A stretch of 36,066 bases of DNA from a virus: the IMG/VR virus record IMGVR_UViG_3300045988_070666. The stretch is one strand, 5' to 3'. The translations under genes were made by a program, and so were the position numbers. A model generated the notes under the pieces. The model was not told where the DNA came from. It made no database searches and saw only the letters and a program-made list of their open reading frames with translations. Position 1 is the first letter of the stretch. The number at the start of each line of letters is the position of its first letter. This document shows positions 1,438 through 22,259 of the stretch, piece by piece.

Positions 1438-1464
1438 ATAAGCAAGTCCAAGGAGGTGAAAAAA

Positions 1465-2211
1465 ATGGAAACAAAAGACATATTAAAGCAACTTCGTGAA
1501 AAAAACAATTATAGTATAAAAGACGTTGCGAATGGAACGAAGATGCAGTATACAATGTGCAGGGAGTATGAGTCAGGCGATAGAAGATTAGGAATGTCGG
1601 CAGCTATTAAGTTCGCCGACTTCTACAACGTATCAATCGACTATCTTTTAGGCAGACCAGATGCCAAAGAGCCAGCCGATCCGATCGACAAGCTGATGAC
1701 GGTGGACGAAATGGAAAAGGACCTGCTCCGAGAGTGGCTAAGTCTGGACGAAGCTTCCCGAAAGTCGTTCTTGGACGTACTGCGGAAGATCGTTGCCGCC
1801 GACCAGAAACGGCAGACTGCCGCATCAAAGCGTGCTGCCTATCTGCTCCACCGCCTGAGCCGCCACAAAGTTTCTGCCGGTCTGGGTTACAACCTGGACG
1901 ACGATGATAACTGGCAGGAGGCAGAGGTTGTGGAAACCGCCGCCGTACATCAGGCAGACTTTGCTGTGGAAGTAGACGGGGACAGCATGGAGCCGGACTA
2001 CTTGAACGGTGACATTCTGCTGGTGCAGTCTACCCCGACGATTGAAGTGGGCGAAGTGGGCGTGTTTACGCTGAACGGTGACGGCTACGTCAAGGAACTG
2101 GGCGAAGGCGAACTGCTCTCCCGCAATCCGGAGTATGATCCCATACCGATCCACGAAAGCGACAGCCTGCAATGCTGGGGACGTGTCATCGGGAAGACGG
2201 AGCTGGTGTGA
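1465..2211 (+). CDS. cI/LexA-like phage repressor with an N-terminal XRE-type HTH and a C-terminal S24 peptidase domain
   Basis: HTH segment YSIKDVANGTKMQYTMCREYESGDR. Ala-Gly (SAGLG) candidate cleavage site. GDSMEP serine motif and a later VKEL lysine. AGGAGG lies 8 nt before the ATG at 1465 (the track starts at an upstream GTG, 1456). Confidence 0.9.
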   Translation: METKDILKQLREKNNYSIKDVANGTKMQYTMCREYESGDRRLGMSAAIKFADFYNVSIDYLLGRPDAKEPADPIDKLMTVDEMEKDLLREWLSLDEASRKSFLDVLRKIVAADQKRQTAASKRAAYLLHRLSRHKVSAGLGYNLDDDDNWQEAEVVETAAVHQADFAVEVDGDSMEPDYLNGDILLVQSTPTIEVGEVGVFTLNGDGYVKELGEGELLSRNPEYDPIPIHESDSLQCWGRVIGKTELV

Positions 2212-2859: not shown

Positions 2860-4293
2860 ATGAAAATCGCAGCGGCGTACATTCGCGTATCCACCGACGA
2901 CCAGATCGAATACTCCCCCGACAGCCAGCGGAAAGCCATTCTGGACTACGCCAAACGCAACGACTACATCGTGCCGCAGGAGTACATCTTCGTGGACGAG
3001 GGCATCAGCGGCAGAAGCACCAAACGACCGGCGTTCCAGCAGATGATCGGCACGGCAAAGCAGAAAAGCCACCCCTTCGATGCGATACTGGTGTGGAAAT
3101 TCTCCCGTTTCGCACGAAACCGGGAGGACAGCGTGGTCTACAAGTCCATGCTCCGGAAACAGTGCGGTGTGGAAGTGGTGTCTATCTCCGAGCAGATCGG
3201 AGAAGATAAAACGTCTATCCTGATCGAAGCCCTGCTGGAAGCTATGGACGAATACTACAGTATCAACCTGTCGGAAGAAGTCGTCCGCGGCATGTCGGAA
3301 AAGGCACGGCGTGGCGGCACTCTTGGACGTGCTCCGTTTGGGTATACGGCGAAAAACGGCGAGCTGCTGCCCAACGACGATGCAAAAACGGTGCAGTGGA
3401 TCTTCAACGCTTTTTTAAACGGCACAGGAATGCGGACTATCGCCACCCAGCTGAACAGCAGCGGCATACGCACCGCATACGGAAAGCCCTGGGAGAACCG
3501 TACAGTGGAATATGTGCTGCGGAATATCACCTATGCGGGACACCAGCACTGGACGCCCGGAGGGACAAAAGACATGAAACACGCAGAAAAAATCAAAGGG
3601 AATACCATTGTTAAAAACAACGCCCACACCGCGATTGTGTCCGAAGAACAATTCGCCGCGGTACAAGAGAAGATCGCGGAGAACAAACGTAAGTACAAGA
3701 AGCACGAGCAGCCGGAAGTCGGTATCCCGTTTCTGGGAAAGGGGCTGCTGCGATGCAGCGACTGCGGCGGGGCACTATGTATGCTTGGCCGTGGCAACGG
3801 GATCCAGTGCCACAACTACGCACACGGGAAGTGCAATGTATCTCACTATATCAAGCTGGAATATATTGACAAGATGATTGTTGATAAGATCAAAAGCGAT
3901 GTGGAGGCACAGAATTTCCGCACCATACTGATTCCGGAAAACGCTGCAGAAAGTCAGGAGATGCAGGACAACAAGAGAACGTTGGAGCGTGCCAGAAAGA
4001 AACTTGCCCGTGTCAGGGAGGCGTATGAAAACGGCATTGACACGATAGAGGAGTACAGGCAGAACAAAGCCAGAATCCAAAAGGAAATCGAAGAACTGGA
4101 AGCGAAGCCTGCTCCGCCGAAAGAAACCCAGGAATCTGCGGCAGAAAAGCTGCGGCAGCGTATCCTGTCAAACGTTACACTTCTGGAATCCGATGCACCG
4201 GCAGGGCTGAAAAACGACATGCTCCACACGTTTGTCAACAGGATCGTATTTGACCGCAAAAACACGCGGTTGGAAGTGGAGTATCACGGGTGA
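2860..4293 (+). CDS. Large serine recombinase (phage integrase)
   Basis: N-terminal resolvase catalytic motif AAYIRVSTDDQ, a recombinase domain, a Cys cluster (CSDCGG...CHNYAHGKC) and a C-terminal coiled coil. 477 aa. AAAGGAG RBS. Confidence 0.92.
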   Translation: MKIAAAYIRVSTDDQIEYSPDSQRKAILDYAKRNDYIVPQEYIFVDEGISGRSTKRPAFQQMIGTAKQKSHPFDAILVWKFSRFARNREDSVVYKSMLRKQCGVEVVSISEQIGEDKTSILIEALLEAMDEYYSINLSEEVVRGMSEKARRGGTLGRAPFGYTAKNGELLPNDDAKTVQWIFNAFLNGTGMRTIATQLNSSGIRTAYGKPWENRTVEYVLRNITYAGHQHWTPGGTKDMKHAEKIKGNTIVKNNAHTAIVSEEQFAAVQEKIAENKRKYKKHEQPEVGIPFLGKGLLRCSDCGGALCMLGRGNGIQCHNYAHGKCNVSHYIKLEYIDKMIVDKIKSDVEAQNFRTILIPENAAESQEMQDNKRTLERARKKLARVREAYENGIDTIEEYRQNKARIQKEIEELEAKPAPPKETQESAAEKLRQRILSNVTLLESDAPAGLKNDMLHTFVNRIVFDRKNTRLEVEYHG

Positions 4294-5326: not shown

Positions 5327-5743
5327 TTAATCTTCCTTTCCCTTGCTTTGCAGCAAGTCAATTGCTTTTTTTAACGCCGCCGGCATGGGGATTCCCATTA
5401 GTCCGGCGTTTTCAAAAATGGAAATCAGCTCGTTGACAGTAAACGCGATGCAGACTGCATCACGGATATACGTTGTGCCAAGAATCAGATCCAGTTGTGC
5501 AGAGATCAGCACCAGCAGCAGCGTTACACATTTTCGGGAAACGCCTTTCCAGCCAATTTTTGATTGCAGACCGCCGGAAGCTGTCTTGGGGGATTTCCGG
5601 AATACGCCTGCCAAAATCAAACCGGTCAAAAAATCGATTGCCATAAACAACAGCAATGCCCGAATAGATGCGTCCCACCCGCCGAACAGCCCTGCGATAA
5701 AGCTGCCGACAACGCCGGCAACTGTGCAGATTGTTTCTTTCAT
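5327..5743 (-). CDS. Holin (phage_holin_4_1 / LL-H-like family)
   Basis: 138 aa with 3-4 TM segments. FENAGLMGIP motif. Lies directly upstream of the endolysin. Confidence 0.85.
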   Translation of the reverse strand: MKETICTVAGVVGSFIAGLFGGWDASIRALLLFMAIDFLTGLILAGVFRKSPKTASGGLQSKIGWKGVSRKCVTLLLVLISAQLDLILGTTYIRDAVCIAFTVNELISIFENAGLMGIPMPAALKKAIDLLQSKGKED

Positions 5744-5756
5744 AGTTTCCTCCTAG

Positions 5757-8700
5757 TCAGTCAATAAAATAAGTCATACTGCACTCATACGAATTAGCAG
5801 GGTTGAATTCGTATGAGCTGTTTCCTGCTGGTGCAAACGACAGATTGCCACCAACGCCGAGGGTTGCGTCAAACCAAATCTTTTCCGTTGCAGTCGATGT
5901 AATACCGTGCTCTCTTTGTAACACAGACGGACGATAACCCTCTGGTATTGTTGCTACATTGTGACCTGTTCCAAACGCTGTCTTATACTTGACCGCTGCC
6001 TCAAGCCGGACTAGCTTGCCGTATTTTCTAACTTTAATGATGCTGGAAGAGCTTGGATACGTCGTATTGCCGGTGACAGCCAAGGGGCAGGTTACCCAGC
6101 CGGAATCGGTCAATGTTTTGGCAGAGTTTACGTCCAGTTCACCCGCATATCGATGCTGAATTCGATTATCCTTTTTCACTAAAACCCACGTGTCTGACGA
6201 GTTGTATGTATCAACGTCGTTTATCAAGCCGTTCCAGGTGGTGGCAGTGTTGACTACACCGTTGTTGTAGTACGTTGCCTCTTTATTCCCAGTAGGCGGT
6301 GCTGTTTGAAACGTAGTGGCATCGTGTTTTTCAAATATCCATCTGTTTGTATTTGCACCAGCGTAGGCTTGCTCAGCTAAGCACGTAAATTGCGTTGAAT
6401 TCCATCTTACCTGTGTGTTATGCCATATCTCATACCGAACGCCGCTATCGGTGTAAACCGCAACAAATTTGAAATACGCATTAGCTAACCCGGTAGGCTT
6501 ATTCGTAAAAATCTGCTCAAACCTGATCCAATCACAGGCTTTACCCGTTGAGCTGTTACGATAAGATACGCTAAACAGCCCAGCACCATTGTGCCCAGAT
6601 GTAGCCAACAGCGTCATGGTGATCGTATCGTATCCGACAGTGTCCTCACAGTAGGCTACTCTTGCCCAAGTATACCCGGAATTAGCAGTCGTGGTTGAGT
6701 TTTGCACATATCCGTACTTCATATGCCCAGCACTCAGAGCATTAGCTTTAACCGCCGTGCCGCTTTTTGCAAGAGCGTAGTTCGTATAATTCTTAACATC
6801 TAGCAGTGTATTTTCATGCGAATGCGTATTCCCATAAACCGTATTCCAGCCAACATCTGTAATCTTATCCAGCGTTCCCTTATTGTCATGAACGTGTGCC
6901 TTATTTGCCGCACCGTTGATAAGCTTCCACTGTTCCTCGCTCAGCTGGTCAAGCACTGCCTTATTGTCATGGGTGTGGCTGGATACTGTCAGGCGACCAG
7001 TCTTGGTATCAAGACTTACCGACGTTCCACCGTCCCCGTCTATCAAAAAAGCACTCTGCTTTGCCGTGGCAGCGTATCTCGCGGAGCCCGTTGCGATTGT
7101 GGAGAATGCGTTCTGATTCACCTCGGCACCTGCTGAAACGCCTTTTAGTTTCGTCTGCTCCGCGGTCGTATAGCTGGCAGTCGTTGCGTCCAGCACTGCT
7201 TTATTGCTATGAGAATGGCTTGAAATCGTTGCTCTGCCGTTGGTGCTAAGTGTAACGCTAGTACCGTCTTCACCCTCGATCACAAAAGCGGCAGTTTTGC
7301 TTGTCGCGGTATATCTTGCTGAACCAGATGCAATTGTGGAGAACGCATTCTGGTTGACTTCCGCACCGGCAGCAATGCCGGCAAGTTTCGTCTTTTCGGC
7401 AGCGGTATAGCTGGCAGTTGTTTTGTCCAGCACAGGCTGGTTCTCATGTACGTGTGTCTGCCCGTACACCAGCAGCCACGACGTTTCATCGATCTTGTCC
7501 AAGGTGCTTTTATTGTCGTGCACATGGGCTTTGTTTGCCGATGCTTTAAAGTCCGCGTAATCCTGTGCCGTGATTCTGTCCAGCACTTCCTCGTTATCAT
7601 GCCTATGGGATTGCCCGTATACAGTCAGCCACGCTGTTTCATCGATCTTATCCAGCGTGTCTTTGTTTGCGTGGATATGTGCCTTGTTGACAGCCCCTTT
7701 GAAGTCCGCGTAATCCTGCTCCATGATTTTATCCAGAACGCCCTTGTTGGAGTGTGTATGAGCCATTGCATCGGCACCGGAGCCGGCATCTGCAATGCTG
7801 CCGCCGCCCTGCCCGCCGCTTCCGCTTGTGATGCCGCTTTCCTGTGTGCCTACCGTCAGCTTCGCATTTTCAGGTGCCGCGATCGGAATCTCAATTGCGG
7901 TTATGGGGAAAAGGCTCTCCGCGGAATCCCCCGGCAGCTTTGTCCGTACATAGTCGCCGTGTGTGAAGTGCTCCACGCTTTCGTCGATGTCCGCCAGATC
8001 GATGGCTTCCGCACGGATCGTGCTTGCCGCCTTCCCGTTCTGCCGCAGCCACACTGCTCCCTGATACGCCAGCGTTCCCGCGTCTGTAATGTCGTCAAAA
8101 GTCACAGCCTGCTGTATCAGACCGTACTTTTCCATGCGGGATTTGCTGTAGACCATGTTTCCGGATTTCACAAGATCGTCCGTTCCGGTCATGTACTGGA
8201 TCATAAAAGTGGCATCGTCATCGTCCGCCTTATCTATCGTAAGACGGACTTCGTTATCTCCGCTGCTGTCCTTTCGCTTTCCCAGCGGTACAACAGCAGT
8301 TGCAATTGATGTACAATCATATGCCCAGTCGCAGTTCAGCAGATTTTTGGCATATCGCACGTCCTGTGAGCAGGTTCCTGACGGAATTGCAAGCCAGTCG
8401 ATATATCCGGCACAGGTATCGCTGCCGACATATCTGACACGCAGAATGCCGCCAAACGAGTTCAGCAGCTTGTCTTGGATTTCTTCCCAGAAGGACGGAT
8501 ACACACCACTGGAGCGGGCAATTGTTCCTTCTGTTCCGTCCTGCGTCATTGCCTTATGTACCGTCACATCACCCAGCTCGAAGCTTTTCGACTTGTCCCG
8601 CAGCTTTTGGTTGTACATTTTGATATACCAGTACAGTACGTCTTTGGGCGTTGCCCCGCTGATCGAGTAGGCAAAGTGCAGGTCGTTCAGCCATGCCAGA

Positions 8701-8972
8701 GCTCCCTCGCAGTCATACGTGCGTATGCCATACATGTCCTGACTGTATCCCGTGACTTCTCCGTAAAAAAGTAGTTTGCTGTCCCGCCAGATCTTCACGC
8801 GGGACACCTTGCATGCGATCTCTTTGTACAGCGGATGCTGCGGGTAGATCGCAAAGGAAAAGCTGTCCACGCCGTTGACCACAAGCTTCACATCAGGATC
8901 TGTGACGTACTCCATGCCGTTGACACTGCCGGTGAAGCACAGCAGCTTCTCATCTACTTTGACCTTATACAC
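5757..8972 (-). CDS. Tail-associated / tail fibre protein (Tal-like N-terminus, HxH repeat shaft, C-terminal receptor-binding region)
   Basis: 1071 aa, directly downstream of Dit. Gly-rich linker, then repeated H-x-H-x-N-K-x-x-L-D units. The C-terminal part is visibly AT-richer. Confidence 0.85.
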   Translation of the reverse strand: MYKVKVDEKLLCFTGSVNGMEYVTDPDVKLVVNGVDSFSFAIYPQHPLYKEIACKVSRVKIWRDSKLLFYGEVTGYSQDMYGIRTYDCEGALAWLNDLHFAYSISGATPKDVLYWYIKMYNQKLRDKSKSFELGDVTVHKAMTQDGTEGTIARSSGVYPSFWEEIQDKLLNSFGGILRVRYVGSDTCAGYIDWLAIPSGTCSQDVRYAKNLLNCDWAYDCTSIATAVVPLGKRKDSSGDNEVRLTIDKADDDDATFMIQYMTGTDDLVKSGNMVYSKSRMEKYGLIQQAVTFDDITDAGTLAYQGAVWLRQNGKAASTIRAEAIDLADIDESVEHFTHGDYVRTKLPGDSAESLFPITAIEIPIAAPENAKLTVGTQESGITSGSGGQGGGSIADAGSGADAMAHTHSNKGVLDKIMEQDYADFKGAVNKAHIHANKDTLDKIDETAWLTVYGQSHRHDNEEVLDRITAQDYADFKASANKAHVHDNKSTLDKIDETSWLLVYGQTHVHENQPVLDKTTASYTAAEKTKLAGIAAGAEVNQNAFSTIASGSARYTATSKTAAFVIEGEDGTSVTLSTNGRATISSHSHSNKAVLDATTASYTTAEQTKLKGVSAGAEVNQNAFSTIATGSARYAATAKQSAFLIDGDGGTSVSLDTKTGRLTVSSHTHDNKAVLDQLSEEQWKLINGAANKAHVHDNKGTLDKITDVGWNTVYGNTHSHENTLLDVKNYTNYALAKSGTAVKANALSAGHMKYGYVQNSTTTANSGYTWARVAYCEDTVGYDTITMTLLATSGHNGAGLFSVSYRNSSTGKACDWIRFEQIFTNKPTGLANAYFKFVAVYTDSGVRYEIWHNTQVRWNSTQFTCLAEQAYAGANTNRWIFEKHDATTFQTAPPTGNKEATYYNNGVVNTATTWNGLINDVDTYNSSDTWVLVKKDNRIQHRYAGELDVNSAKTLTDSGWVTCPLAVTGNTTYPSSSSIIKVRKYGKLVRLEAAVKYKTAFGTGHNVATIPEGYRPSVLQREHGITSTATEKIWFDATLGVGGNLSFAPAGNSSYEFNPANSYECSMTYFID
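6805..7775 (-). repeat. In-gene tandem repeats: 51-aa units (HxHxNK..LD...NKAHxHxNK.TLDKI) and two ~79-aa units (TTASYT..AEVNQNAFSTIA.GSARY..)
   Basis: The repeats are visible in the translated protein and as DNA similarity, for example around 7168 versus 7405 (offset about 237 nt). Confidence 0.85.
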
Positions 8973-8974
8973 TC

Positions 8975-9712
8975 TTACAGGCTCCTTTCCTGCAGCTTTA
9001 TCGTCACTGTCAGATCACCCTCTCCGACACAGCAGAACCCGAACTCCTGCGTTGCCCCAGCAGGAATCTCAACGCCGCTGATCGCCGTATCTTTCCCGCT
9101 TGGCAGCGATTCGGATTCGTTCAGGTACGTGTCGCTGCTGCCGCCTGTGTGCCGCTCCGTTGCTGTGACATAGAAATCCTTGTCGCCGTTGAACGTCGGC
9201 ACAGCAGGAACGCCGCCGGCGTTTGTGACGGAGGCGTGGATCAGGGTGGCAGCCGTACCACCAGCTGTACCAACGCCTTTTCCGACCGTGTGACCGGAGC
9301 AGGTCACTGTTCTAGCCTTGTTCTTGTACTTATACGGATCGCAGGTCGCCGTCAGCGTCACTTCCCCGATCTGCCCGTCAGGAGAGAGTTCCCCGACAGA
9401 TACACGCCCCGTGTAGAAGTAATCCTTGTCATCGTCCAGCACGATTTTCACTCGCTTGCCGTTCAGGGCGTTTTGCAGCTTTGCATATGCCGCGTTCAGC
9501 CCGAAGCGATCCGCGATAAAGGTGAACTGCATCTTCAGTATGCGGCTTTTGTACGTCACGCCGCCGAAGTACTCCGTAAAGTCCACAGCCCCGTCTACGC
9601 CGGGGATCTCCACCAAGTTGGTGTTCGGCTCCGCTTCGCCGATGCTGTAGGAATTCAGAAAAAGCTGGTACGCATCATACGAGTGGTTCCCGTCAAATTT
9701 GATGCCTTTCAT
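8975..9712 (-). CDS. Distal tail protein (Dit, siphovirus tail family)
   Basis: 245 aa, positioned between the tape measure and Tal. The N-terminal sequence MKGIKFDGNHSYD...VEIPGVDG is typical of Dit. Confidence 0.8.
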   Translation of the reverse strand: MKGIKFDGNHSYDAYQLFLNSYSIGEAEPNTNLVEIPGVDGAVDFTEYFGGVTYKSRILKMQFTFIADRFGLNAAYAKLQNALNGKRVKIVLDDDKDYFYTGRVSVGELSPDGQIGEVTLTATCDPYKYKNKARTVTCSGHTVGKGVGTAGGTAATLIHASVTNAGGVPAVPTFNGDKDFYVTATERHTGGSSDTYLNESESLPSGKDTAISGVEIPAGATQEFGFCCVGEGDLTVTIKLQERSL

Positions 9713-15254: not shown

Positions 15255-16217
15255 TCACTTCTTGAACTTCGCCAGTACCACCTTGGAGGTGTCAGACAGT
15301 GCTACCGCATAGAACCGGTCTGCACTGATGTCTGTCTTTCTGGACAGGGTTGCACGTTCGATCTCCACGTTGGTGTCACGCTTCAGGTAAATGGTCAGTG
15401 CGGCAGTGTCGTCCTCGGTTTCGTCGTCCTGATTCAGCTTGACGATGGGGCAGAAGTAGCACGCCGTAGTGGACTTTGTGACCTTGTCGCCGACCTTTGC
15501 AGCGGGCAGGGTTTTCCGGATCTCCGCGATGTTCCCCTCAGTCGCCGCCGTGCCGCTTTCGTCAAAGTAATACCACTCGCTGTGCAGCGGCACTTTCTTG
15601 GACGGCACCACGCGGCAGTTTGCCACCATGCCAATTTCACCGGTCAGCATCACGCCGTCCTTGTACTTGTCTGCACTGAGGAAATCGCTGTCCTTCCGCA
15701 GCTGTGTCACCTGCTTCGGGTGCACAAAGATGACCTTGTCCGTATTCACTTCCTCGTCCAGCACGTCAATGGCGTCTACAATGCCGGCGTACTTGATCGC
15801 CGCCGCACTGCTGTCATAGGTCAGCTGTGCCCCCTGCAACGCAGCCATGGCATCGGCATCGACCTTCGCCGCGATGGACTTTCCGATCTGGTTATTGGTT
15901 TCTGCCACCGGATTGCCGTAGCCGGACAGCACAGACTCATCGGTCAGCTCCACTGCCTTCATTGCCTTCTTGATCTTCACGGTGGTGGTGCTGGTCTGGA
16001 GCTTTACGGTGTCTGCCTTTACGCCCTCGGCAACGTCTACCGCATCGCCGATGTAGCTGTACTGCGGCACGGTGATCGTGTCACCCGGTACGCCCTGCAG
16101 GGTGGTGTCCACCTTTGCGAACGGAGTGACGACGATCTTATTGGTGATTTTGGCGGAGATCATATCCGCCATGACCTGCGGGTTTACAAGGTCCTTAATA
16201 GTTGTTGTTTCTGCCAT
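15255..16217 (-). CDS. Major capsid protein (HK97 fold)
   Basis: 320 aa following the scaffold gene. The N-terminal MAETTTIKDLVNPQV...TPFAKVDTTLQG pattern is typical of Firmicutes phage major capsid proteins. Confidence 0.88.
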   Translation of the reverse strand: MAETTTIKDLVNPQVMADMISAKITNKIVVTPFAKVDTTLQGVPGDTITVPQYSYIGDAVDVAEGVKADTVKLQTSTTTVKIKKAMKAVELTDESVLSGYGNPVAETNNQIGKSIAAKVDADAMAALQGAQLTYDSSAAAIKYAGIVDAIDVLDEEVNTDKVIFVHPKQVTQLRKDSDFLSADKYKDGVMLTGEIGMVANCRVVPSKKVPLHSEWYYFDESGTAATEGNIAEIRKTLPAAKVGDKVTKSTTACYFCPIVKLNQDDETEDDTAALTIYLKRDTNVEIERATLSRKTDISADRFYAVALSDTSKVVLAKFKK

Positions 16218-16219
16218 GG

Positions 16220-16783
16220 TTATTCTCCTTTTCTCCCGGTAAGGGTGTCGTATGTGTCTTTGTCGGTCTTGTACAAGTCCAGCCGCTGGGCGTAGGACAT
16301 CTTTGCAAACGCATCAGCAGTCACCGCAGAGCCGCCGCTGTTGTCCGGCAGCTTCTGTTCCAGTATCTGCTTTTTCTCTGCCGCCGCGAACTGCGTCGGA
16401 TACTGGGATTTCAGCGTTTCCAGCGTGGTGTCCCAGCCTGTCAGATCGCCTTTATCGTCCAGAGCCACGCCGTCCATGCCTTGCAGTTTGTACGCCAGAT
16501 AGTCGGTGTCCAGTGCTCCCGCTTTCAGCAGTGCCACCTGTACCGCAGCGTCCAGCTTCGCCTTGGCGAGTTCCGCTTCCAGCTGTGTGATGCGTGTGCT
16601 CTCCTGTGCCTGCTTGGCGGCGTTGTCTGCCTTGGTCTGCTTCTGGGCTTGCTTTAACGCGTCCTGTGCCTGTTGCAGCTGCACCTGCAACGCGTTGTAC
16701 TCTGCCGCTGTGTAAGTCTTTTCCGGCGGCGACGCGTCGGGTTCAGGCGGCTGTGCCGGATTCTTCTTCGGTTCGTCTGCCAT
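16220..16783 (-). CDS. Scaffolding protein
   Basis: Likely start is the ATG at 16783 (AAAGGAA RBS). 187 aa, Pro/Ala/Gln-rich N-terminus and coiled coil. Lies upstream of the capsid gene. The longer track ORF (to 16918) is Arg-rich and looks non-coding. Confidence 0.8.
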   Translation of the reverse strand: MADEPKKNPAQPPEPDASPPEKTYTAAEYNALQVQLQQAQDALKQAQKQTKADNAAKQAQESTRITQLEAELAKAKLDAAVQVALLKAGALDTDYLAYKLQGMDGVALDDKGDLTGWDTTLETLKSQYPTQFAAAEKKQILEQKLPDNSGGSAVTADAFAKMSYAQRLDLYKTDKDTYDTLTGRKGE

Positions 16784-16810
16784 GTGTATCATTCCTTTCT
16801 GAAAATTGGG

Positions 16811-16841
16811 TATAAAAATAGCACCTGATCGCTCAGATGCT
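16811..16841 (-). terminator. Intrinsic terminator-like hairpin (9-bp stem, GCGA loop, then AUUUUUAUA) between the accessory cassette and the scaffold gene
   Basis: Minus-sense agcaucuga-gcga-ucaggugcu followed by a U-rich tract. A second 7-bp hairpin (aagaacg...cgttctt) lies just upstream at about 16860-16892. Confidence 0.6.
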
Positions 16842-16932
16842 GATTTTTCGATAAAAGAACGCCGTACCCGCTGGCTGAATCGTTCTTGTTTTCCGTCCCT
16901 CCGCCAGTTTTCGCCCATGGTCGGGGCGGTGA

Positions 16933-17196
16933 TTACAGTTCGATGTCTTCGATCGCTGCACGTGCTTCCAGACTGGAGATATAATCCGCCATCGCTCTGA
17001 TCTGGAAATTATAGATACCTCTCGGACAGGTCGGCTGGAAGTTCAGTTTGCCTTCGTCCCATTTGTCCAGCATTGCTTTCAGCTTCTGATACCGGACAGC
17101 CACCTGTGCATATTCTGCCTTAAAACGTTCCTTGTAGTCGTCGCTGCACATCAGCGATACTGTGTCTTTCAACTCTGTTGCTCTGTATGTTCCCAT
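16933..17196 (-). CDS. Small helical phage protein, unknown function
   Basis: 87 aa. RBS present. Sequence SLMCSDDYKERFKAEYAQVAVRYQKLKAMLDKWDEGKLNF. Frequently a neighbour of DUF2829 genes (from memory, unverified). Confidence 0.6.
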   Translation of the reverse strand: MGTYRATELKDTVSLMCSDDYKERFKAEYAQVAVRYQKLKAMLDKWDEGKLNFQPTCPRGIYNFQIRAMADYISSLEARAAIEDIEL

Positions 17197-17215
17197 GTTT
17201 TTCTCCTTTCGTGGC

Positions 17216-17467
17216 CTATTCTACGATATGCCAATCTTCCGCCAGCATATCGGTCTGACTAGCCAGCCAGCCGATGCAATACCGGTTATCTGCGGTTTTC
17301 ATAACAACGCTGTCCGTAAACGGATAACTTCCGTCACCGATTTCCTGCGTCAGTAATTTTCCGTCAGCAAGGTACAAGTACATTCCTTTGCCGTTCCAGC
17401 CGGTTCTGGCGACTTTCTTTCCAGCTTTCAGTGCTTCCAATGCACCGCCGAATGTCATTTCTTTCAT
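17216..17467 (-). CDS. DUF2829-family protein (Tad2-like, candidate anti-Thoeris sponge)
   Basis: Start is the ATG at 17467 with AAAGGAG 5 nt upstream. The sequence MKEMTFGGALEALKAGKKVARTGWNGKGMYLYL...GWLASQTDMLAEDWHIV matches the hallmark DUF2829 pattern. Confidence 0.75.
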   Translation of the reverse strand: MKEMTFGGALEALKAGKKVARTGWNGKGMYLYLADGKLLTQEIGDGSYPFTDSVVMKTADNRYCIGWLASQTDMLAEDWHIVE

Positions 17468-17566
17468 AGATTCTCCTTTCGGGCATAGAAAAAAGCACCC
17501 CGTTTTGAGATGCTTTCTGTGGTATTTGGTTTTACTTCTCAAAATAGCAGGCATTTTGAGATAGCT

Positions 17567-17737
17567 TTAATCATTTTTGTGCTTTTCTGCAAATTCCTTT
17601 TTGAATTTTTCAAATTCCATATCGAAATCTTCCTGCGTATAGTTTGCATATTTTGCATCTCTTTTTGCAAAATCAGATAAATCTCCATCGCACTCTCTGC
17701 AAATAAATCCATCTGTATTTACGTTATTCCCATCCAT
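17567..17737 (-). CDS. AT-rich 56-aa ORF immediately after the MuF-JAB gene (MDGNNVNTDGFICRECDGDLSDFAKRDAKYANYTQEDFDMEFEKFKKEFAEKHKND)
   Basis: Hand translation (below the track size cut-off). AAGAGG RBS lies inside the MuF 3' end. The ATG is 1 nt after the MuF stop. A hairpin follows. Confidence 0.5.
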   Translation of the reverse strand: MDGNNVNTDGFICRECDGDLSDFAKRDAKYANYTQEDFDMEFEKFKKEFAEKHKND

Positions 17738-17738
17738 G

Positions 17739-19406
17739 CTATTTTACCTCTTTTACTGAAAAGCCATATAATCTTGATAAATCGATTAGAGCATTATACT
17801 GTGCTTCAAATTCAGTTTGACCAAGATCTTTGTACTTCGAGATTCTGGTGTTATAAATTGATTGATCAATCAGATATTCCGGCTTTGTGTACTCAAATAT
17901 TATACCGTCATGCCCGATTGTATAACCCTTTTGATACCCATTTTTCAATGCAGCGTTCAGATCGCCGGCACTCGGCGGCATACCTAACGGGTGGTTATGG
18001 AACGAAACGATTTCATCTTTTTCAGATTCTTGCAACGCTCTGCGGATTTCTTCCGTATAGTCCGGCGTTCCGGCTTGCGTTCCTGTTGTTGAAGAATACC
18101 ATTTCTTCGTTCTGGTATTGTAGAAGTACAGGTCTTCACCGTTTGTGCCAGAACGATGGCTCAGCATTTTCTTAGCAACCTGATAATACTGCCGTTGGAT
18201 TTTTTTATCTGAATCCATGGAATCAAACTTGCTCCTGAACTCTCTGCTTTTTACCAGATCTTTTGGAACAGCATAATCCGAAGAACTTTGCATTCGTTCC
18301 TGTTCTTTTATTATACCACTATCCGCCCCAGAAGTCAACGCCTTTCCGCCGATTTTCTCCGCCCGATACGTCTTTCCCGTACCGCCGTTGTCCTTTGTTG
18401 CAGGCGGCGTGACTTCCACAGCGTGCCCCGCAGGAACCGGAACTGTTCCGTCCGGCTTCCCTGCTGTTTCCTGCACGTATCCCGCACGATATGCCGCGTA
18501 TGATTCACTGGAAACCTTCACAAGGGCTCTGTGCTGGTTGTCATACTTGTAATCGCCGTCGGCTCTGACCGCCCATCTGGGGCGGCTGTAGGCGTGACAG
18601 CGGCAGTTGATGTCCTCGGACGCAATGCCAAACTTACCGGGTGCCTGTGCCTTTCTGCCGTCCACCTCAAAGGGCTCGTCCAGTTCGCGGACCTGCCCGT
18701 CCAGCTGGACATGGTGCGGGCGTGTCTTTTTGTCCATGGTGCTGTCCCACTGCTTCACCAGATCTGCCCCCTGCTGCTTCGCCGTTCTGGCGGCTTCCAG
18801 TCTGGCAGCGTTGGCGATGCGGTTTCCCTCGGTGCGGACGATCAGCTTTGCCCGTCCCAGTGCCCCGCCACGCATAGTGGCATAGTTGCCGATCATTTTA
18901 CCGGTGATCTGGTTCGCCATATCCCCGTAGCTTGCACCAGATGCAAAGCCGGCGGAAACGATGTCGGTGATATGCTTTTTCAGTCCGGCAAAATCCTCGC
19001 CGATGCTGTCATACAGCGGCTTTACAAGCTTCGTGTCGTTGACGGCAGCCTGACAGACCTTATCCTGCGGAATTGGCAGCGAGAGCCGCAGCCCGTCGCT
19101 TTGCAGTTCGTACAGCACCGCCGTGTGCCCTGTGAGATAGCAGTCCTGCAAGTACTCCTGCACGGTGCGGTACGTCTTGCTGTGCAGCTTTCCGAGAATG
19201 CGTTCCAGCTGCTTCTGCAAGCCCTGCTGAAACGCTTTCTGGTAGGCAACAGCCTGCCGATTTTCCTCATCCGTCCGTTCGTCCAGCTGCCGGAGCCTGT
19301 CCTTGACATCTTCCAGTGCTTTCTGATACGATCGTTCCAGCTGCTCCATGACTTTTTTCTCGGAAAGCAGCTCATACTGCGTGGTCTGCTTCTGTGCCGG
19401 TGTCAT
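17739..19406 (-). CDS. Minor head protein (SPP1 gp7 / Mu F family) fused to a C-terminal RadC-like JAB/MPN domain
   Basis: The MuF core is present (LIVRTEGNR...KQWDSTMDKKTRPHHVQLDGQ...INCRCH). The C-terminal ~180 aa carry GEDLYFYN ... IVSFHNHPLGMPPSAGD, resembling the JAMM/RadC E...HxH...S..D motif. Likely start is the ATG at 19406. Confidence 0.8.
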   Translation of the reverse strand: MTPAQKQTTQYELLSEKKVMEQLERSYQKALEDVKDRLRQLDERTDEENRQAVAYQKAFQQGLQKQLERILGKLHSKTYRTVQEYLQDCYLTGHTAVLYELQSDGLRLSLPIPQDKVCQAAVNDTKLVKPLYDSIGEDFAGLKKHITDIVSAGFASGASYGDMANQITGKMIGNYATMRGGALGRAKLIVRTEGNRIANAARLEAARTAKQQGADLVKQWDSTMDKKTRPHHVQLDGQVRELDEPFEVDGRKAQAPGKFGIASEDINCRCHAYSRPRWAVRADGDYKYDNQHRALVKVSSESYAAYRAGYVQETAGKPDGTVPVPAGHAVEVTPPATKDNGGTGKTYRAEKIGGKALTSGADSGIIKEQERMQSSSDYAVPKDLVKSREFRSKFDSMDSDKKIQRQYYQVAKKMLSHRSGTNGEDLYFYNTRTKKWYSSTTGTQAGTPDYTEEIRRALQESEKDEIVSFHNHPLGMPPSAGDLNAALKNGYQKGYTIGHDGIIFEYTKPEYLIDQSIYNTRISKYKDLGQTEFEAQYNALIDLSRLYGFSVKEVK

Positions 19407-20850
19407 CTGCCGCACCTTCTTCCAGCTGCTGCATCAGGCTGTCCAGCTGTGCACCGTCCGTCTGTTCCAGCGACTTCCGCACCTCTGCCTCGTCCAGTTC
19501 CAGCACCTTGCACAGCGGCTGCAGCACGGCTTCCACGCCCAGCTGTGCCGCCGCGGCAAGCAGGGTGTTTACCTTGATCTGCACGGCAGCAGCTTCCGCA
19601 CTGCCGATCGCCGCGTTGTCGGATTCGTTCGTGATACAGGTTCTTGTGAAGTCCATTTTCACGTCAGCACGGGTGAACGCCGTCCCCCTGTCCTTGTTGA
19701 TCTGCTGCAATACCACGTCGATGATGCCGCCCATCATCTGCCGCAGGTGTGTTTCCAGCTTGCCGCACTTGATGTCCAGCAGGGCGTACCGGGACTTGAT
19801 GACCACGTTGGTGATGTTGCCGTCGCCGACCTGTGCGGCGTTGAAGCCCATGCCGAACTGATAGATGTTCTCTTTGTCCAGTTCCAGCTTGACCTTGCGG
19901 GCTTCATAGGGCACTTCTACCGTTTTCATATCCACCCCGCCGCTTTCACCGGTGCCGATCACCTTCTTGGTCTTGATGTTCTGCATCAGTTCCGTCATGT
20001 CTGTGCCGCCGTATCCGGACACGACCACCAGATACTCCGCCGCGTCCTGCAGGTTGTTGGACAGCCCGCAGGACATCAGGTCATAGTCGTCGATCAGCGA
20101 CTTCACCGGCTGAAGCCCCGAAACGCGTTCACGGTTGTTGTCGATGCGGAACCACGGCAGAAATCCCAGCCCCTCGAAGTAGGTATCGTCGGAATTGCCC
20201 TTTTTGTAGAGCACATGCGGCCGTGGATTGGGAAGCCCGTTTTCCGGTTCGTCCAGCGTGATCGTGCCGCTGTCCGGCTGCGTATACGTCCACGTCTGCG
20301 TGTCGTCCATGACAAGCACCTTGTACACTGTGTGCCCGTACATGTCTGTCCGCTGCGGATACCGGTACAGCACATAGTCCCTGCCGTCAGAAGTGTATCT
20401 GCCGTCCGCTTCCACCACAGACAACGCATCGGCACACTGGAACGCCAGCCTGCCGTCTGCGTTCATATAGGCGTACAGCCAGCCCCAGCCGCAGACCACC
20501 GCATCTGTACAGGCATCTGCCAGCTCCGCCCGAAAGCGGTCGTTCTCGTTGAAGTAGCTGTCCAGTTCCTTTTGCAGCCGGTCATCTTCGGCGACCACGA
20601 TCCTGTCACGGTTGCTGAGCAGATACTGCACTTCCTGATCTGCCAGTTCCGTGAAAAACGGGTGTGAGATTTTGATGTTGCTTCTGGTTTTGTCCTCTTG
20701 CAGCTCTCCGTGAGCATCATAGTAAAACAGGCGGTAGTTCTGTATTGCATGGCGGGCGTGGTAGTACTGCCGCCCGATGCGTGCCTGTGCCTTTTGCGGA
20801 TCCCCGTATGCTGTGTTCAGCAGCGTTTGTATTTCTCCGATGTGAAGCAT
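19372..20850 (-). CDS. Portal protein (SPP1 gp6-like)
   Basis: About 492 aa, positioned between TerL and MuF. TAGGAGG RBS precedes the ATG at 20850. Confidence 0.88.
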   Translation of the reverse strand: MLHIGEIQTLLNTAYGDPQKAQARIGRQYYHARHAIQNYRLFYYDAHGELQEDKTRSNIKISHPFFTELADQEVQYLLSNRDRIVVAEDDRLQKELDSYFNENDRFRAELADACTDAVVCGWGWLYAYMNADGRLAFQCADALSVVEADGRYTSDGRDYVLYRYPQRTDMYGHTVYKVLVMDDTQTWTYTQPDSGTITLDEPENGLPNPRPHVLYKKGNSDDTYFEGLGFLPWFRIDNNRERVSGLQPVKSLIDDYDLMSCGLSNNLQDAAEYLVVVSGYGGTDMTELMQNIKTKKVIGTGESGGVDMKTVEVPYEARKVKLELDKENIYQFGMGFNAAQVGDGNITNVVIKSRYALLDIKCGKLETHLRQMMGGIIDVVLQQINKDRGTAFTRADVKMDFTRTCITNESDNAAIGSAEAAAVQIKVNTLLAAAAQLGVEAVLQPLCKVLELDEAEVRKSLEQTDGAQLDSLMQQLEEGAADDTGTEADHAV

Positions 20851-20861
20851 TCTTTCACCTC

Positions 20862-22259
20862 CTACACAAGCCACATGCCGAGCGGCTTGGGATTTTCATA
20901 CACTCCGGTCAACGCGTCCGGTGCGTCGTCGTGGGCATTCTTTCCGGTACGCTGATAGGACAGCACCGCACCGGCAAAATCCCGCCAGCGGTCTGCCCAG
21001 TTCACCGGAAACAGCACGTTCTGCATCACGCCGGTGCTGTTGGATAAAATCCGTGCAATCTTGTTCTTATGCTGGTGAAACCACGTAATTTTCGTGTGCC
21101 GGTTCCCCAGCTTCCGGCATTCCCGTTCCACGTTTCTGGCGAACCCTCTGCCGCCGTTGTTGGATTCGATGATCGCACAGCCAATGCGGTGCTCGGTCAG
21201 CATCTGTGCAGTCTGCGGCTCGGTGGTTTCCATGGGTGCACTGGTATAGAGCACGTCCAGCACGTAGTATGTGCCGTTATACACGCCGTAGCAGATGCTG
21301 CACAGGTAGTCGCTGCCCTCGTCTGCGGTATCGGTGTAGCACAGCAGATACCGGAGCAGGGATTCCCCGTTCTCATCCGTTGGCAGTGCGGTGTACGTCT
21401 GTAGCCGGGTATACAGTCTGCCCCTGATGTCCATGGGCTCCTGCTGATAGTTGGCGGCGGCGATCTCTTTTCCCATGGCACTCGTCTTTGCCAGATAAGA
21501 CCTTTTGGTCAGCACGGCATCACAGAGCATTGTGCCGTCGTCCTGCAACGCTTTCATACAGACGTGCCGCATCTTTGCACCGGACTTTCGGTAGTGCTCC
21601 AACGCCCGCCCTGCGAGGTCGTCTGTCGCCCAGCGTGTCATGATGATGAGCAGCTTTCCGTTTTCCTCCAGACGGGACTGCATCGTATCCGTAAACCAAG
21701 CCCAGTGCTTTTCTTTCACCAGTTCGTTGTTGGCTTCTTCGGCGTTTTTGATGAGATCGTCGATAATCATCAGCGATGCCCCGAAGCCGGTCGCCGTACC
21801 GGTGGGCGATGTGGCAAGGTAGTTGTTGTAGCCGCCCTCCAGGCTCCACAGGTTCATTGCCCCGTCGCCGTGCTTGATGCGGGTGTCGGGGAACACATCG
21901 GCGTACACCGGTATGTACAAGTCCGCCTTTTGCTCGGAGATCGCGTTTCGCACATTCTTGGAAAACATGGTGGAAAGCGTTTCGTTGTAAGAGCCTGTCA
22001 TGATTTTCTGAGAGGGATCACGGCCGAGCACCCACTCCACCAGCAGACCGGCCGTTCTGGACTTGCCGTGACGGGGCGGGAGATTCACGATCATCACCTC
22101 GTCATCAGATTCCACGAACGCCTGAAACTCCCTGCACAGCCGCACAAGATACTGCCGGTCAGGCTGATAAAAGTCAGGTGCCATCAGGCTGCAATAGGCA
22201 AAAAAGTCACGCCTTGCCAGTTCCGCCTTCGCACCGAGCACGATCAGCCGCTTATCCAC
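20862..22259 (-). CDS. terL: Terminase large subunit
   Basis: 465 aa. Walker A-like PPRHGKS. LMIIDD Walker B. C-terminal nuclease-like region. Overlaps TerS. Confidence 0.9.
   Translation of the reverse strand: MDKRLIVLGAKAELARRDFFAYCSLMAPDFYQPDRQYLVRLCREFQAFVESDDEVMIVNLPPRHGKSRTAGLLVEWVLGRDPSQKIMTGSYNETLSTMFSKNVRNAISEQKADLYIPVYADVFPDTRIKHGDGAMNLWSLEGGYNNYLATSPTGTATGFGASLMIIDDLIKNAEEANNELVKEKHWAWFTDTMQSRLEENGKLLIIMTRWATDDLAGRALEHYRKSGAKMRHVCMKALQDDGTMLCDAVLTKRSYLAKTSAMGKEIAAANYQQEPMDIRGRLYTRLQTYTALPTDENGESLLRYLLCYTDTADEGSDYLCSICYGVYNGTYYVLDVLYTSAPMETTEPQTAQMLTEHRIGCAIIESNNGGRGFARNVERECRKLGNRHTKITWFHQHKNKIARILSNSTGVMQNVLFPVNWADRWRDFAGAVLSYQRTGKNAHDDAPDALTGVYENPKPLGMWLV

Follow-up and report, generated by a model that had tools for sequence, protein, structure and literature searches.

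MuF toxins, a class of polymorphic toxins defined by Zhang et al. 2012 (PMC3482391) and Jamet et al. 2017 (PMC5576092), carry variable C-termini and are followed by small downstream immunity open reading frames (ORFs) (PMC5576092, PMC3482391). About 75% of the MuF toxin domains are common to other polymorphic-toxin families (Jamet et al., PMC5576092), sharing that is typical, not obligatory, and for the Apk2 MuF toxins both toxicity and immunity were shown experimentally (PMC12226406). MuF-borne C-terminal domains are proteins that can be delivered with phage DNA, and few of them (e.g., Apk2) have been characterized. Also already known are the Tox-JAB-1 and Tox-JAB-2 (DUF4329) families of Zhang et al. 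2012, which are JAB-fold C-terminal toxin modules paired with immunity genes, and the RadC modules of polyvalent proteins (Iyer et al. 2017, PMC5512222), which are effectors of phages and mobile elements delivered with the DNA. Here we analyzed the IMG/VR virus record IMGVR_UViG_3300045988_070666, 36,066 nucleotides (nt) in length (the whole stretch is called the window), which encodes a MuF head protein fused to a JAB-like C-terminal domain and, directly downstream, an ORF of 56 amino acids (aa). We favor a reading in which a temperate gut phage of the siphovirus type carries here one allele of a polymorphic locus for MuF effectors ("MuF toxins") and in which the small partner is most likely an inhibitor or immunity protein; we hold this to be probable. 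New relative to the described systems are a large unannotated JAB family, its obligatory small partner, the exchange of the pair between unrelated phages, and an architecture in which promoter-like hexamers double as codons and a terminator-like hairpin closes the cassette.

The fusion gene (17739..19415, minus strand) encodes 558 aa from a GTG start at 19415; the ATG at 19406, which an earlier sequence-only reading of the window had used as the start, is an alternative. The N-terminal SPP1 gp7/Mu F head-morphogenesis core (aa 1 to 286; 18558..19415, minus strand) matched Phage_Mu_F (PF04233) at aa 148 to 275 with an E value of 8.6e-18 and 65.5 bits, above the Pfam cut-off of 29.6. It continues into a flexible linker (aa 287 to 376; 18288..18557, minus strand), at the end of which lies the left recombination junction, and then into the C-terminal domain (aa 377 to 558; 17742..18287, minus strand), which comprises an N-terminal helical part, a JAB core, and two C-terminal helices. 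In the full-length AlphaFold2 (AF2) model, the MuF core was folded (predicted local distance difference test [pLDDT] values mostly 80 to 95), the linker was disordered (pLDDT below 50 at aa 287 to 300 and 321 to 376), and the JAB domain had pLDDT values of 90 to 97, with a predicted template modeling score (pTM) of 0.58. According to this model, the JAB domain would be tethered rather than docked, with a disordered tether of ~55 to 90 aa. All of the matches found in a BFVD search with the full-length model were "minor capsid protein" entries.

The sequence-only reading had described the N-terminal part as an SPP1 gp7/Mu F domain and the C-terminal part as resembling a RadC-type JAB/MPN domain. 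Both assignments held, and the motifs that it quoted (GEDLYFYN, EIVSFHNHPLGMPPSAGD, and GHDGIIF) are present in the translation. Modeled alone with a 21-sequence alignment, the C-terminal domain gave a pLDDT of 94.4 and a pTM of 0.89. The best match in a Foldseek search of the PDB was Pyrococcus furiosus JAMM1 (5ld9/5lda; probability 1.0, E value 3e-3), with a TM-score of ~0.5 and 18% identity, and it was followed by Chlorobium tepidum RadC (2qlc) and then by cytidine deaminases, which belong to the same fold class, again with modest TM-scores of ~0.5. In the AF2 model, the HxH motif stands at the end of a β-strand and the S..D motif at the start of the next helix, which is the canonical JAMM arrangement. 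RadC was the nearest family by sequence: its Pfam family (PF04002) gave sub-threshold matches over the metal motif in 14 of 18 family members (best E value, 2.9e-4), Prok-JAB was matched by 5 of the 18, and hhalign aligned the family profile (18-sequence alignment A2) to RadC 2qlc with a probability of 86.9% and an E value of 4e-6 across only 41 columns around the metal motif. The window protein itself reached 12.1 to 14.3 bits against the RadC Pfam family, below the gathering cut-off of 22.1, and an E value of 0.14 with the NCBIfam RadC model. Residues 370 to 558 had no significant Pfam, NCBIfam, PHROG, or PADLOC family, and nothing significant emerged from a profile search of PDB sequences with the domain. 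Together, the model and the sequence comparisons support a JAB/JAMM fold with RadC as the closest known relative, and, since the RadC Pfam cut-off was not reached, we treat the domain as a separate, undescribed JAB family.

The putative metal site consists of H473-N-H475-P-L-G-M-P-P-S482-A-G-D485 (17961..17999, minus strand) and a catalytic-type glutamate, E427 (18135-18137, minus strand). In 89 diverse long members of the family, E427, H473, H475, P481, D485, H502, and Y509 (window numbering) were invariant, and the same seven residues did not vary in alignment A6 either (52 diverse sequences for E427, H473, H475, and D485); S482 was invariant in alignment A2 and nearly invariant in alignment A1. 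This conservation and the modeled site suggest a metal-dependent hydrolase, the catalytic activity of which we infer. The domain resembles RadC in its JAB/deaminase-class fold, in the HNHP...PS..D motif, and in a histidine after the following strand (LDH in RadC, GHDG here). It differs from RadC in the distance from the second histidine to the serine, which is 6 residues here (HNHP-LG-MPPS) and 7 in RadC; hhalign opened a one-residue gap exactly at this place, in agreement with the shortened spacing that the sequence-only reading had described. Further differences are the score below the Pfam cut-off, an additional conserved N-terminal helical segment (HRSGxNGED), the two-helix C-terminal extension, and the obligatory small partner ORF. 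Tox-JAB-1 and Tox-JAB-2 are different sequence families: DUF4329 was matched by 1 of the 18 members with an E value of 0.13, and no Tox-JAB-1-type family was among the Pfam matches of these members at E values up to 1. They also differ in their carriers, which are RHS, type VI secretion, or type VII secretion proteins rather than MuF proteins, and in their immunity proteins, which are Imm65 or NTF2-like, whereas the partner here is an acidic helical peptide of 40 to 60 aa. A stand-alone chromosomal copy from a Ruminococcus metagenome-assembled genome (P0016; L058 6013-6567) has FHNYP in place of FHNHP, so that the second metal histidine is replaced by tyrosine; it may be an inactivated orphan copy that is still accompanied by the small ORF.

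The partner ORF (17567..17737, minus strand) encodes a 56-aa acidic protein with the motif [KRQ]-E-x-D ... [ST]-x-E-E-L-D. The stop codon of the JAB gene (TAG, 17741-17739) is followed by one base (C) and then by the ATG at 17737, the 1-nt separation noted in the sequence-only reading, and a Shine-Dalgarno-like AAAGAGG lies 9 nt upstream of the small ORF, inside the last JAB codons, so the two genes are probably translationally coupled. An ORF of at least 38 aa starting at -8 to +3 nt from the JAB stop codon was found in 63 of 66 JAB loci, in which JAB identities went down to 32%. In the alignment of the small-ORF family, E15 and D17 (of [KRQ]-E-x-D) and E37 (of [ST]-x-E-E-L-D) were nearly invariant. 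The dN/dS ratios were 0.09 to 0.23 for the small ORF and 0.08 to 0.37 for the JAB domain, and by this measure the small ORF is under purifying selection. When the motif was used as a regular expression against all six frames of 1.38 Mb of fetched loci, 53 of the 54 matches came no more than 600 nt after a JAB metal motif, on its downstream side, and the remaining one was in L016, where the JAB gene is split by an IS21-like element. The conserved pairing indicates that the small ORF, which had been proposed as a cassette partner, is a real and dedicated partner of the JAB domain.

Several variants of the small ORF were observed. In L016, a Ruminococcus callidus-type phage, the IS21-like element (6424-9276; IstA-like protein of 507 aa and IstB-like protein of 248 aa) parts the JAB core from the C-terminal helices and the small ORF. 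The small ORFs of L025 and of the L028-L052 group have a GTG start, and in L028-L052 (~1 to 330 nt past the JAB stop codon) the small ORF continues in frame into an additional domain of ~55 aa (MKVR...G.VY.AYHS...EDFEIVEEY), which occurs in L006 as a separate 58-aa ORF (6731-6907); this domain had no Pfam family. The 52-aa partner ORF of the MuF-JAB gene of Streptococcus phage MissF (MissF_0029; L095 3090-3248) is labeled "ATP-dependent RNA helicase" in GenBank, an annotation that looks spurious because the small-ORF motif (EDDNLD ... TVEDLD) is present. A zinc-ribbon reading of the 56-aa ORF, suggested by weak matches to Gin and DUF4428, was rejected, as there is a single CxxC, which is not kept in relatives. 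Three types of C-terminal helices and small ORF occur on one JAB core, A (window), B (L010), and C (L057), with a breakpoint near 17886: the cores are at least 95% identical (window, L009, and L001 versus L010 versus L057), yet the last ~46 aa of the JAB domain (aa ~511 to 558) and the small ORF together drop to ~40 to 48% identity. These types could reflect specificity switching or simply linkage. Covariation of the JAB C-terminal helices with the small ORF was not accepted as evidence of contact; the two are contiguous DNA beyond the breakpoint, and linkage alone could explain it.

The sequence-only reading had proposed that the C-terminus and the small ORF are a swapped-in module, visibly AT-richer than the rest of the phage, and had advised a check of whether related phages keep the MuF core while the C-terminus and the next ORF vary. 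The comparisons bore the module out: the C-terminus was not invariant among relatives, and the small ORF was conserved. The GC content falls from ~0.57 to 0.33 to 0.44 over 17400-18300, and at third codon positions the values for the JAB domain (0.40) and the small ORF (0.27) were below the 0.70 to 0.75 of the MuF core, portal, terminase, and capsid genes; in all loci examined, the segment holding the JAB domain and the small ORF was poorer in GC than the sequence on either side. Among relatives of the core, a scan turned up sister phages (L067-L083) with MuF cores 96 to 99% identical to that of the window. Their nucleotide identity to the window was 94 to 98% down to ~18304-18351 and resumed at 88 to 95% from ~17210 or 16927 (17534 in L067). 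Between these points, in the region equivalent to window positions 17556-18351 and in most cases after the shared peptide ...LTSGxDxGIIK, the sister cores carried at least nine other C-termini, and one allele had no extension. The alternatives included Ntox50 (PF15542, E value 1.8e-21; L068), a second JAB-like type with HNHPDGLPFSEAD (L069 and L074), three unrelated HExxH domains (L070/76/77, L075/78, and L083), a domain with a GEHAHDY motif (L067 and L082), and two domains of unknown type (L071/72 and L073). Most of these types are followed by their own, different small ORF, which usually overlaps the stop codon by 4 to 8 nt; four of these ORFs were scanned and had no Pfam match. In the extension-less allele (L079-L081), MuF ends before the junction, the small ORF is absent as well, and the sequence runs straight to the next gene.

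The JAB cassette itself was found on a second, otherwise unrelated phage. Window positions 17231-18428 were 98.5% identical over 1,198 nt to the IMG/VR contig L009, and outside this block only a 61-nt stretch aligned. The common block takes in the linker, JAB domain, and 56-aa ORF as well as a gene of the Tad2-like family (Thoeris anti-defense 2, PF11195; 17216..17467, minus strand; E value 1.2e-25, above the cut-off) that directly follows the cassette terminator. L009 is a Ruminococcus callidus-type phage with 96% identity to the L057 backbone, and there the cassette is fused to a head protein of the Phage_min_cap2 family (PF06152; E value ~1e-93 in L057 and L010) that is unrelated by BLAST to the window MuF protein except in the linker. 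Thus, the cassette was swapped in and has moved between otherwise unrelated phages. The head-protein gene that carries the cassette in L009 shifts frame relative to L057 between aa ~305 and 338 (~5626-5650), which is either an assembly error or the mark of a pseudogene.

The left end of the cassette coincides with a promoter-like site, TTGACT-17 nt-TGgTATAAT (18310..18338, minus strand), which had 11 of 12 matches in a consensus scan together with an extended -10 element. Its hexamers also encode L-T and (G)-I-I in the junction peptide LTSGxDxGII. In 13 distinct junction sequences that precede different C-terminal types, both hexamers (TTGACT and TATAAT) were invariant, with the 17-nt spacer varying, and two diverged junctions (peptide LTNG..GMI) kept TTGACA-17-TATGAT; a stand-alone copy in L001 has TTGATT at -35. 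The codons used are rare in the core genes of the phage (TTG accounts for ~7% of the Leu codons and ATA for 5 of 76 Ile codons). Of 37 distinct junctions, 13 had a near-consensus site (scoring 11 or more) immediately before the JAB domain, compared with ~1% of random windows, and perfect-consensus sites precede the stand-alone JAB copy of L006 and the MuF-fused copy of L017. The junction 30-mer TTGACTTC..GTGGTATAATA occurred in 43 IMG/VR contigs, on PF04233 as well as PF06152 backbones, and preceded 11 or more C-terminal types. Seven of the 43 contigs (L096, L115, L118, L124, L128, L134, and L138) have the junction pattern outside any long upstream ORF, just before the gene of a zinc-ribbon-rich protein of ~285 aa, a position that fits action as a free-standing promoter. 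Close behind the promoter-like site, an internal ATG (Met375; 18291..18293, minus strand) with AGGAAC upstream corresponds to the start Met of the stand-alone chromosomal homologues; the gene calls of P0004, P0009, and P0016 begin at the equivalent Met.

On the right, the cassette ends with a hairpin resembling an intrinsic terminator, AAAGCATCTC-AAAAC-GGGGTGCTTT followed by a T-run (17489..17516, minus strand; free energy, -11.3 kcal/mol), the right arm of which is also given as GAGGTGCTTTTTT. Such a hairpin followed the C-terminal cassette in 15 of the 17 sister loci scanned, including the extension-less L080 and L081, and was unmatched in L068 and L079; it was also found in L001, L009, L010, and L057. 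The ribosome-binding site (RBS) of the next gene always came after the hairpin. For the Tad2-like gene, the longer ORF listed (start at 17554) probably begins at the ATG at 17467 behind the RBS GAAAGGAGAA. Similar hairpins (GCATCT...GGTGC and a T-run, with variable loops) stand after successive accessory genes and before the scaffold gene on two unrelated phage backbones: in the window at 16820-16841 and 17489-17516 (both minus strand), and in L009 and L010 at ~490 to 530 nt past the JAB stop codon. These recurrent hairpins may be shared cassette-boundary or recombination elements.

Phage morons of the type described by Hendrix are accessory units with their own promoter and terminator inside a late operon, and in E-group colicin operons imm promoters inside the toxin gene allow immunity to be expressed when the main operon is off. 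The present cassette is like both in having a predicted promoter and terminator of its own, with the promoter inside the toxin-coding sequence, and it is unlike them in that its 5' part supplies, in frame, the C-terminal end of a structural protein and that the predicted promoter hexamers double as junction codons. Because it has the promoter-like junction at its left and the conserved terminator-like hairpin at its right, the cassette looks like a moron, and its sequence suggests an autonomous transcription unit spliced in frame onto MuF. Neither a junction-codon promoter nor a conserved terminator was found in the available text of the MuF toxin papers (PMC3482391, PMC5576092, and PMC12226406). 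The arrangement suggests how polymorphic loci might swap cassettes and still have immunity genes switched on in lysogens.

The JAB family is large: among 1.84 billion representative proteins, its profile matched 1,106 clusters at 50% identity at E values up to 1e-3 and 741 at E values up to 1e-10. In the 150 best matches listed of the 1,106 clusters, the domain stood at the C-terminal end or within about a dozen residues of it. The N-termini of the 89 long members were Phage_Mu_F (45 members), Phage_min_cap2 (32 members), VG15 (6 members), and portal (1 member), and LXG, RHS, or other toxin carriers were not among them. Among 50,697 deposited phage genomes, the only carriers were Streptococcus phage MissF, three Anaerostipes phages, and one unannotated fecal phage record, and the proteins, where annotated, were called "minor capsid protein" or "hypothetical." Pairs of a JAB gene and the small ORF also stand alone on chromosomes, in five or more settings that are unrelated to one another; examples are a site between SecDF-like and glyA/serS genes and sites beside sugar or ABC-transporter operons. 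The family is probably among the larger uncharacterized MuF cargo families of gut Firmicutes phages.

On the basis of its position, its polymorphism, and its pairing with a small ORF, we place the locus in the MuF polymorphic toxin/effector class. It shares with MuF toxins the N-terminal MuF domain, a gene position after the portal gene in a temperate phage, the variable C-terminus, and the small ORF directly downstream, and one sister allele carries Ntox50, which is on the list of MuF toxin domains. By analogy with these toxins, the JAB domain is presumed to be toxic and packaged and its partner to give immunity. In the mechanism we propose, the MuF core would put the protein inside the capsid beside the portal, and the tethered JAB hydrolase would exit the virion along with the DNA, to work in the cell just infected. 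In the producer or lysogenic cell, the 56-aa acidic protein would keep the hydrolase inactive, perhaps by lodging its E-x-D motif in the metal site while also binding both C-terminal JAB helices; the aspartate-switch propeptides of metalloproteases offer an analogy for such a motif at a metal site. In the lytic cycle, the MuF-JAB fusion would be made from the late transcript. Lysogens would obtain the small protein, and probably free JAB starting at Met375 as well, from the internal promoter, so that the inhibitor would be made even when the late genes are off. The conserved flanks could serve as recombination anchors for homologous exchange of cassettes between phages. For the substrate of the predicted hydrolase, a peptide or protein bond has about an even chance in our estimate, and a nucleic acid or nucleotide is possible but rather less likely. 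The many metallopeptidase-like alleles at this locus and the peptidase that heads the structural matches point to the former, but RadC as the nearest sequence family points to nucleic-acid processing. If the pair behaves as proposed, it would be a tractable enzyme and inhibitor with which to address the role of RadC-like JAB domains, a long-standing question.

The JAB family differs from the described MuF toxins in that it is not among their listed domains, and in the available parts of Jamet et al. 2017 (PMC5576092) the main text names neither JAB nor RadC and the supplementary text matched only an unrelated phage name. Several observations weigh against our interpretation. Unlike most MuF toxin domains, the family is not shared with other polymorphic-toxin families, as judged from the 89 long members, and its restriction to MuF-type and portal carriers is no less compatible with a phage-specific role than with a generic toxin role. 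The motif of the small ORF is kept across the whole family, which makes it less variable than many immunity proteins, and the covariation of the helices with the small ORF could stem from physical linkage alone. Moreover, a JAB clade with 44 to 53% identity lacks the promoter-like site, and the cassettes of L070 and L075-L078 join at ~18351 without the promoter junction.

One alternative is that the JAB domain is a RadC-like hydrolase of nucleic acids or nucleotides delivered with the DNA, either a nuclease-type toxin or an antirestriction factor. MuF proteins of the SPP1 gp7 type are DNA-associated head proteins, which counts in favor of this alternative, as do the position of RadC as the nearest sequence family and a fold that is common to deaminases. 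Aravind and colleagues propose nucleic-acid processing for RadC (PMC5512222, PMC3482391), polyvalent proteins encoded by phages and conjugative elements can contain RadC domains (PMC5512222), and over half of the known MuF toxins are nucleases (PMC5576092). However, the nuclease activity of RadC is itself a hypothesis (PMC5512222), the RadC match stayed below the Pfam cut-off and the hhalign alignment spanned only the columns around the metal motif, and neither an HhH, an ArdC-N, nor another nucleic-acid-binding module is attached to the domain. Overall, we judge this alternative unlikely.

The sequence-only reading had added, as speculation, that an injected JAB isopeptidase might strip ubiquitin-like (Ubl) conjugates used by host defenses. 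In a broader form, the JAB domain would be an injected counter-defense enzyme, not a toxin, that soon after entry cleaves a host immune protein or strips Ubl conjugates of the Bil or CBASS Cap2 type, and the small protein would be a chaperone or a temporary inhibitor required in the producer cell alone. The best structural match is indeed a Ubl-specific JAMM protein, P. furiosus JAMM1 complexed with SAMP2, and the E...HxH...S..D motif is shared with such isopeptidases (JAMM1 5ld9/5lda, CBASS Cap3, and the Bil JAB protein). The low TM-score and identity and the motif spacing that is off by one set the domain apart from them, and no Ubl, E1, E2, or known defense genes were linked to any copy in the contexts examined, nor was there a PADLOC match at E values up to 1. 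In addition, the sequence is nearer to RadC, which Iyer and Aravind argue is without a groove for the Ubl tail (PMC5512222, PMC3482391). The genomic setting speaks on both sides: the cassette adjoins the Tad2-like anti-Thoeris gene and was transferred with it, the domain is limited to virion-internal carriers among the 89 members, and 5 of ~10 alleles are metallopeptidase-like (three HExxH and two JAB types); however, the stand-alone chromosomal copies, which have a promoter-like site of their own, do not fit an anti-defense role easily, and Ntox50, a bona fide toxin RNase domain, occupies the same slot. Jamet et al. suggested that mildly toxic MuF peptidases might counter cellular defenses (PMC5576092). 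Our literature searches on RadC/JAB in phage defense, on MuF with JAB, and on phage deubiquitinases returned nothing relevant. We regard a counter-defense enzyme as improbable and its Ubl form as still speculative. The same low standing is given to a composite proposal, in which a virion-delivered peptidase or isopeptidase would disable a host immune component at DNA entry, would be held by the 56-aa protein as a plug in the producer, and would be traded with the Tad2-like gene onto different capsid-internal carriers as a promoter-to-terminator moron. In this doubtful proposal, codons of the recombination junction would contain the promoter, and unrelated phages would swap the cassette and an anti-Thoeris gene by homologous exchange.

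A role in morphogenesis, with the JAB domain as a head-maturation or processing protease for capsid assembly and the small ORF as an assembly factor, is very improbable: the best PHROG for the whole protein is phrog_595, labeled "head maturation protease," and the gene lies between the portal and scaffold genes, but sister phages with portal, MuF core, scaffold, and capsid genes 89 to 98% identical at the nucleotide level carry an unrelated domain or none, so that the JAB domain is not required for assembly, and stand-alone copies lie between housekeeping genes. The phrog_595 label was accordingly rejected as a statement of function.

Beyond the MuF C-terminal cassette and the Tad2-like gene, the region between MuF and the scaffold gene holds a small crAss001_48-related gene (PF21825; 16933..17196, minus strand; E value 2.4e-18), which was independently present or absent in the sister phages. 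The Tad2-like gene was likewise present, absent, or, in L071, fused to other sequence. On this annotation the locus is a three-slot accessory array formed by the MuF C-terminal cassette, the Tad2-like gene, and the crAss001_48-like gene, and such an array should be useful for seeking new phage counter-defense genes. An Rfam scan of 16000-19600 gave no matches.

The structural genes around the locus follow the order terminase, portal, and MuF: the large terminase gene (20862..22259) is followed by the portal gene (19372..20874), directly after which comes the MuF-JAB gene, and the scaffold gene (16220..) and the major capsid gene (15255..16217) lie beyond the MuF-JAB locus. The window also encodes a large serine recombinase (2860..4293), a CI-like repressor with helix-turn-helix and S24 domains (1456..2211), and an amidase endolysin, and because of these three genes the phage is, by its gene content, temperate. 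A megablast search of the window against cultured phages gave a sole match, Faecalibacterium phage FP_Lugh, with 73% identity in the replication genes only.

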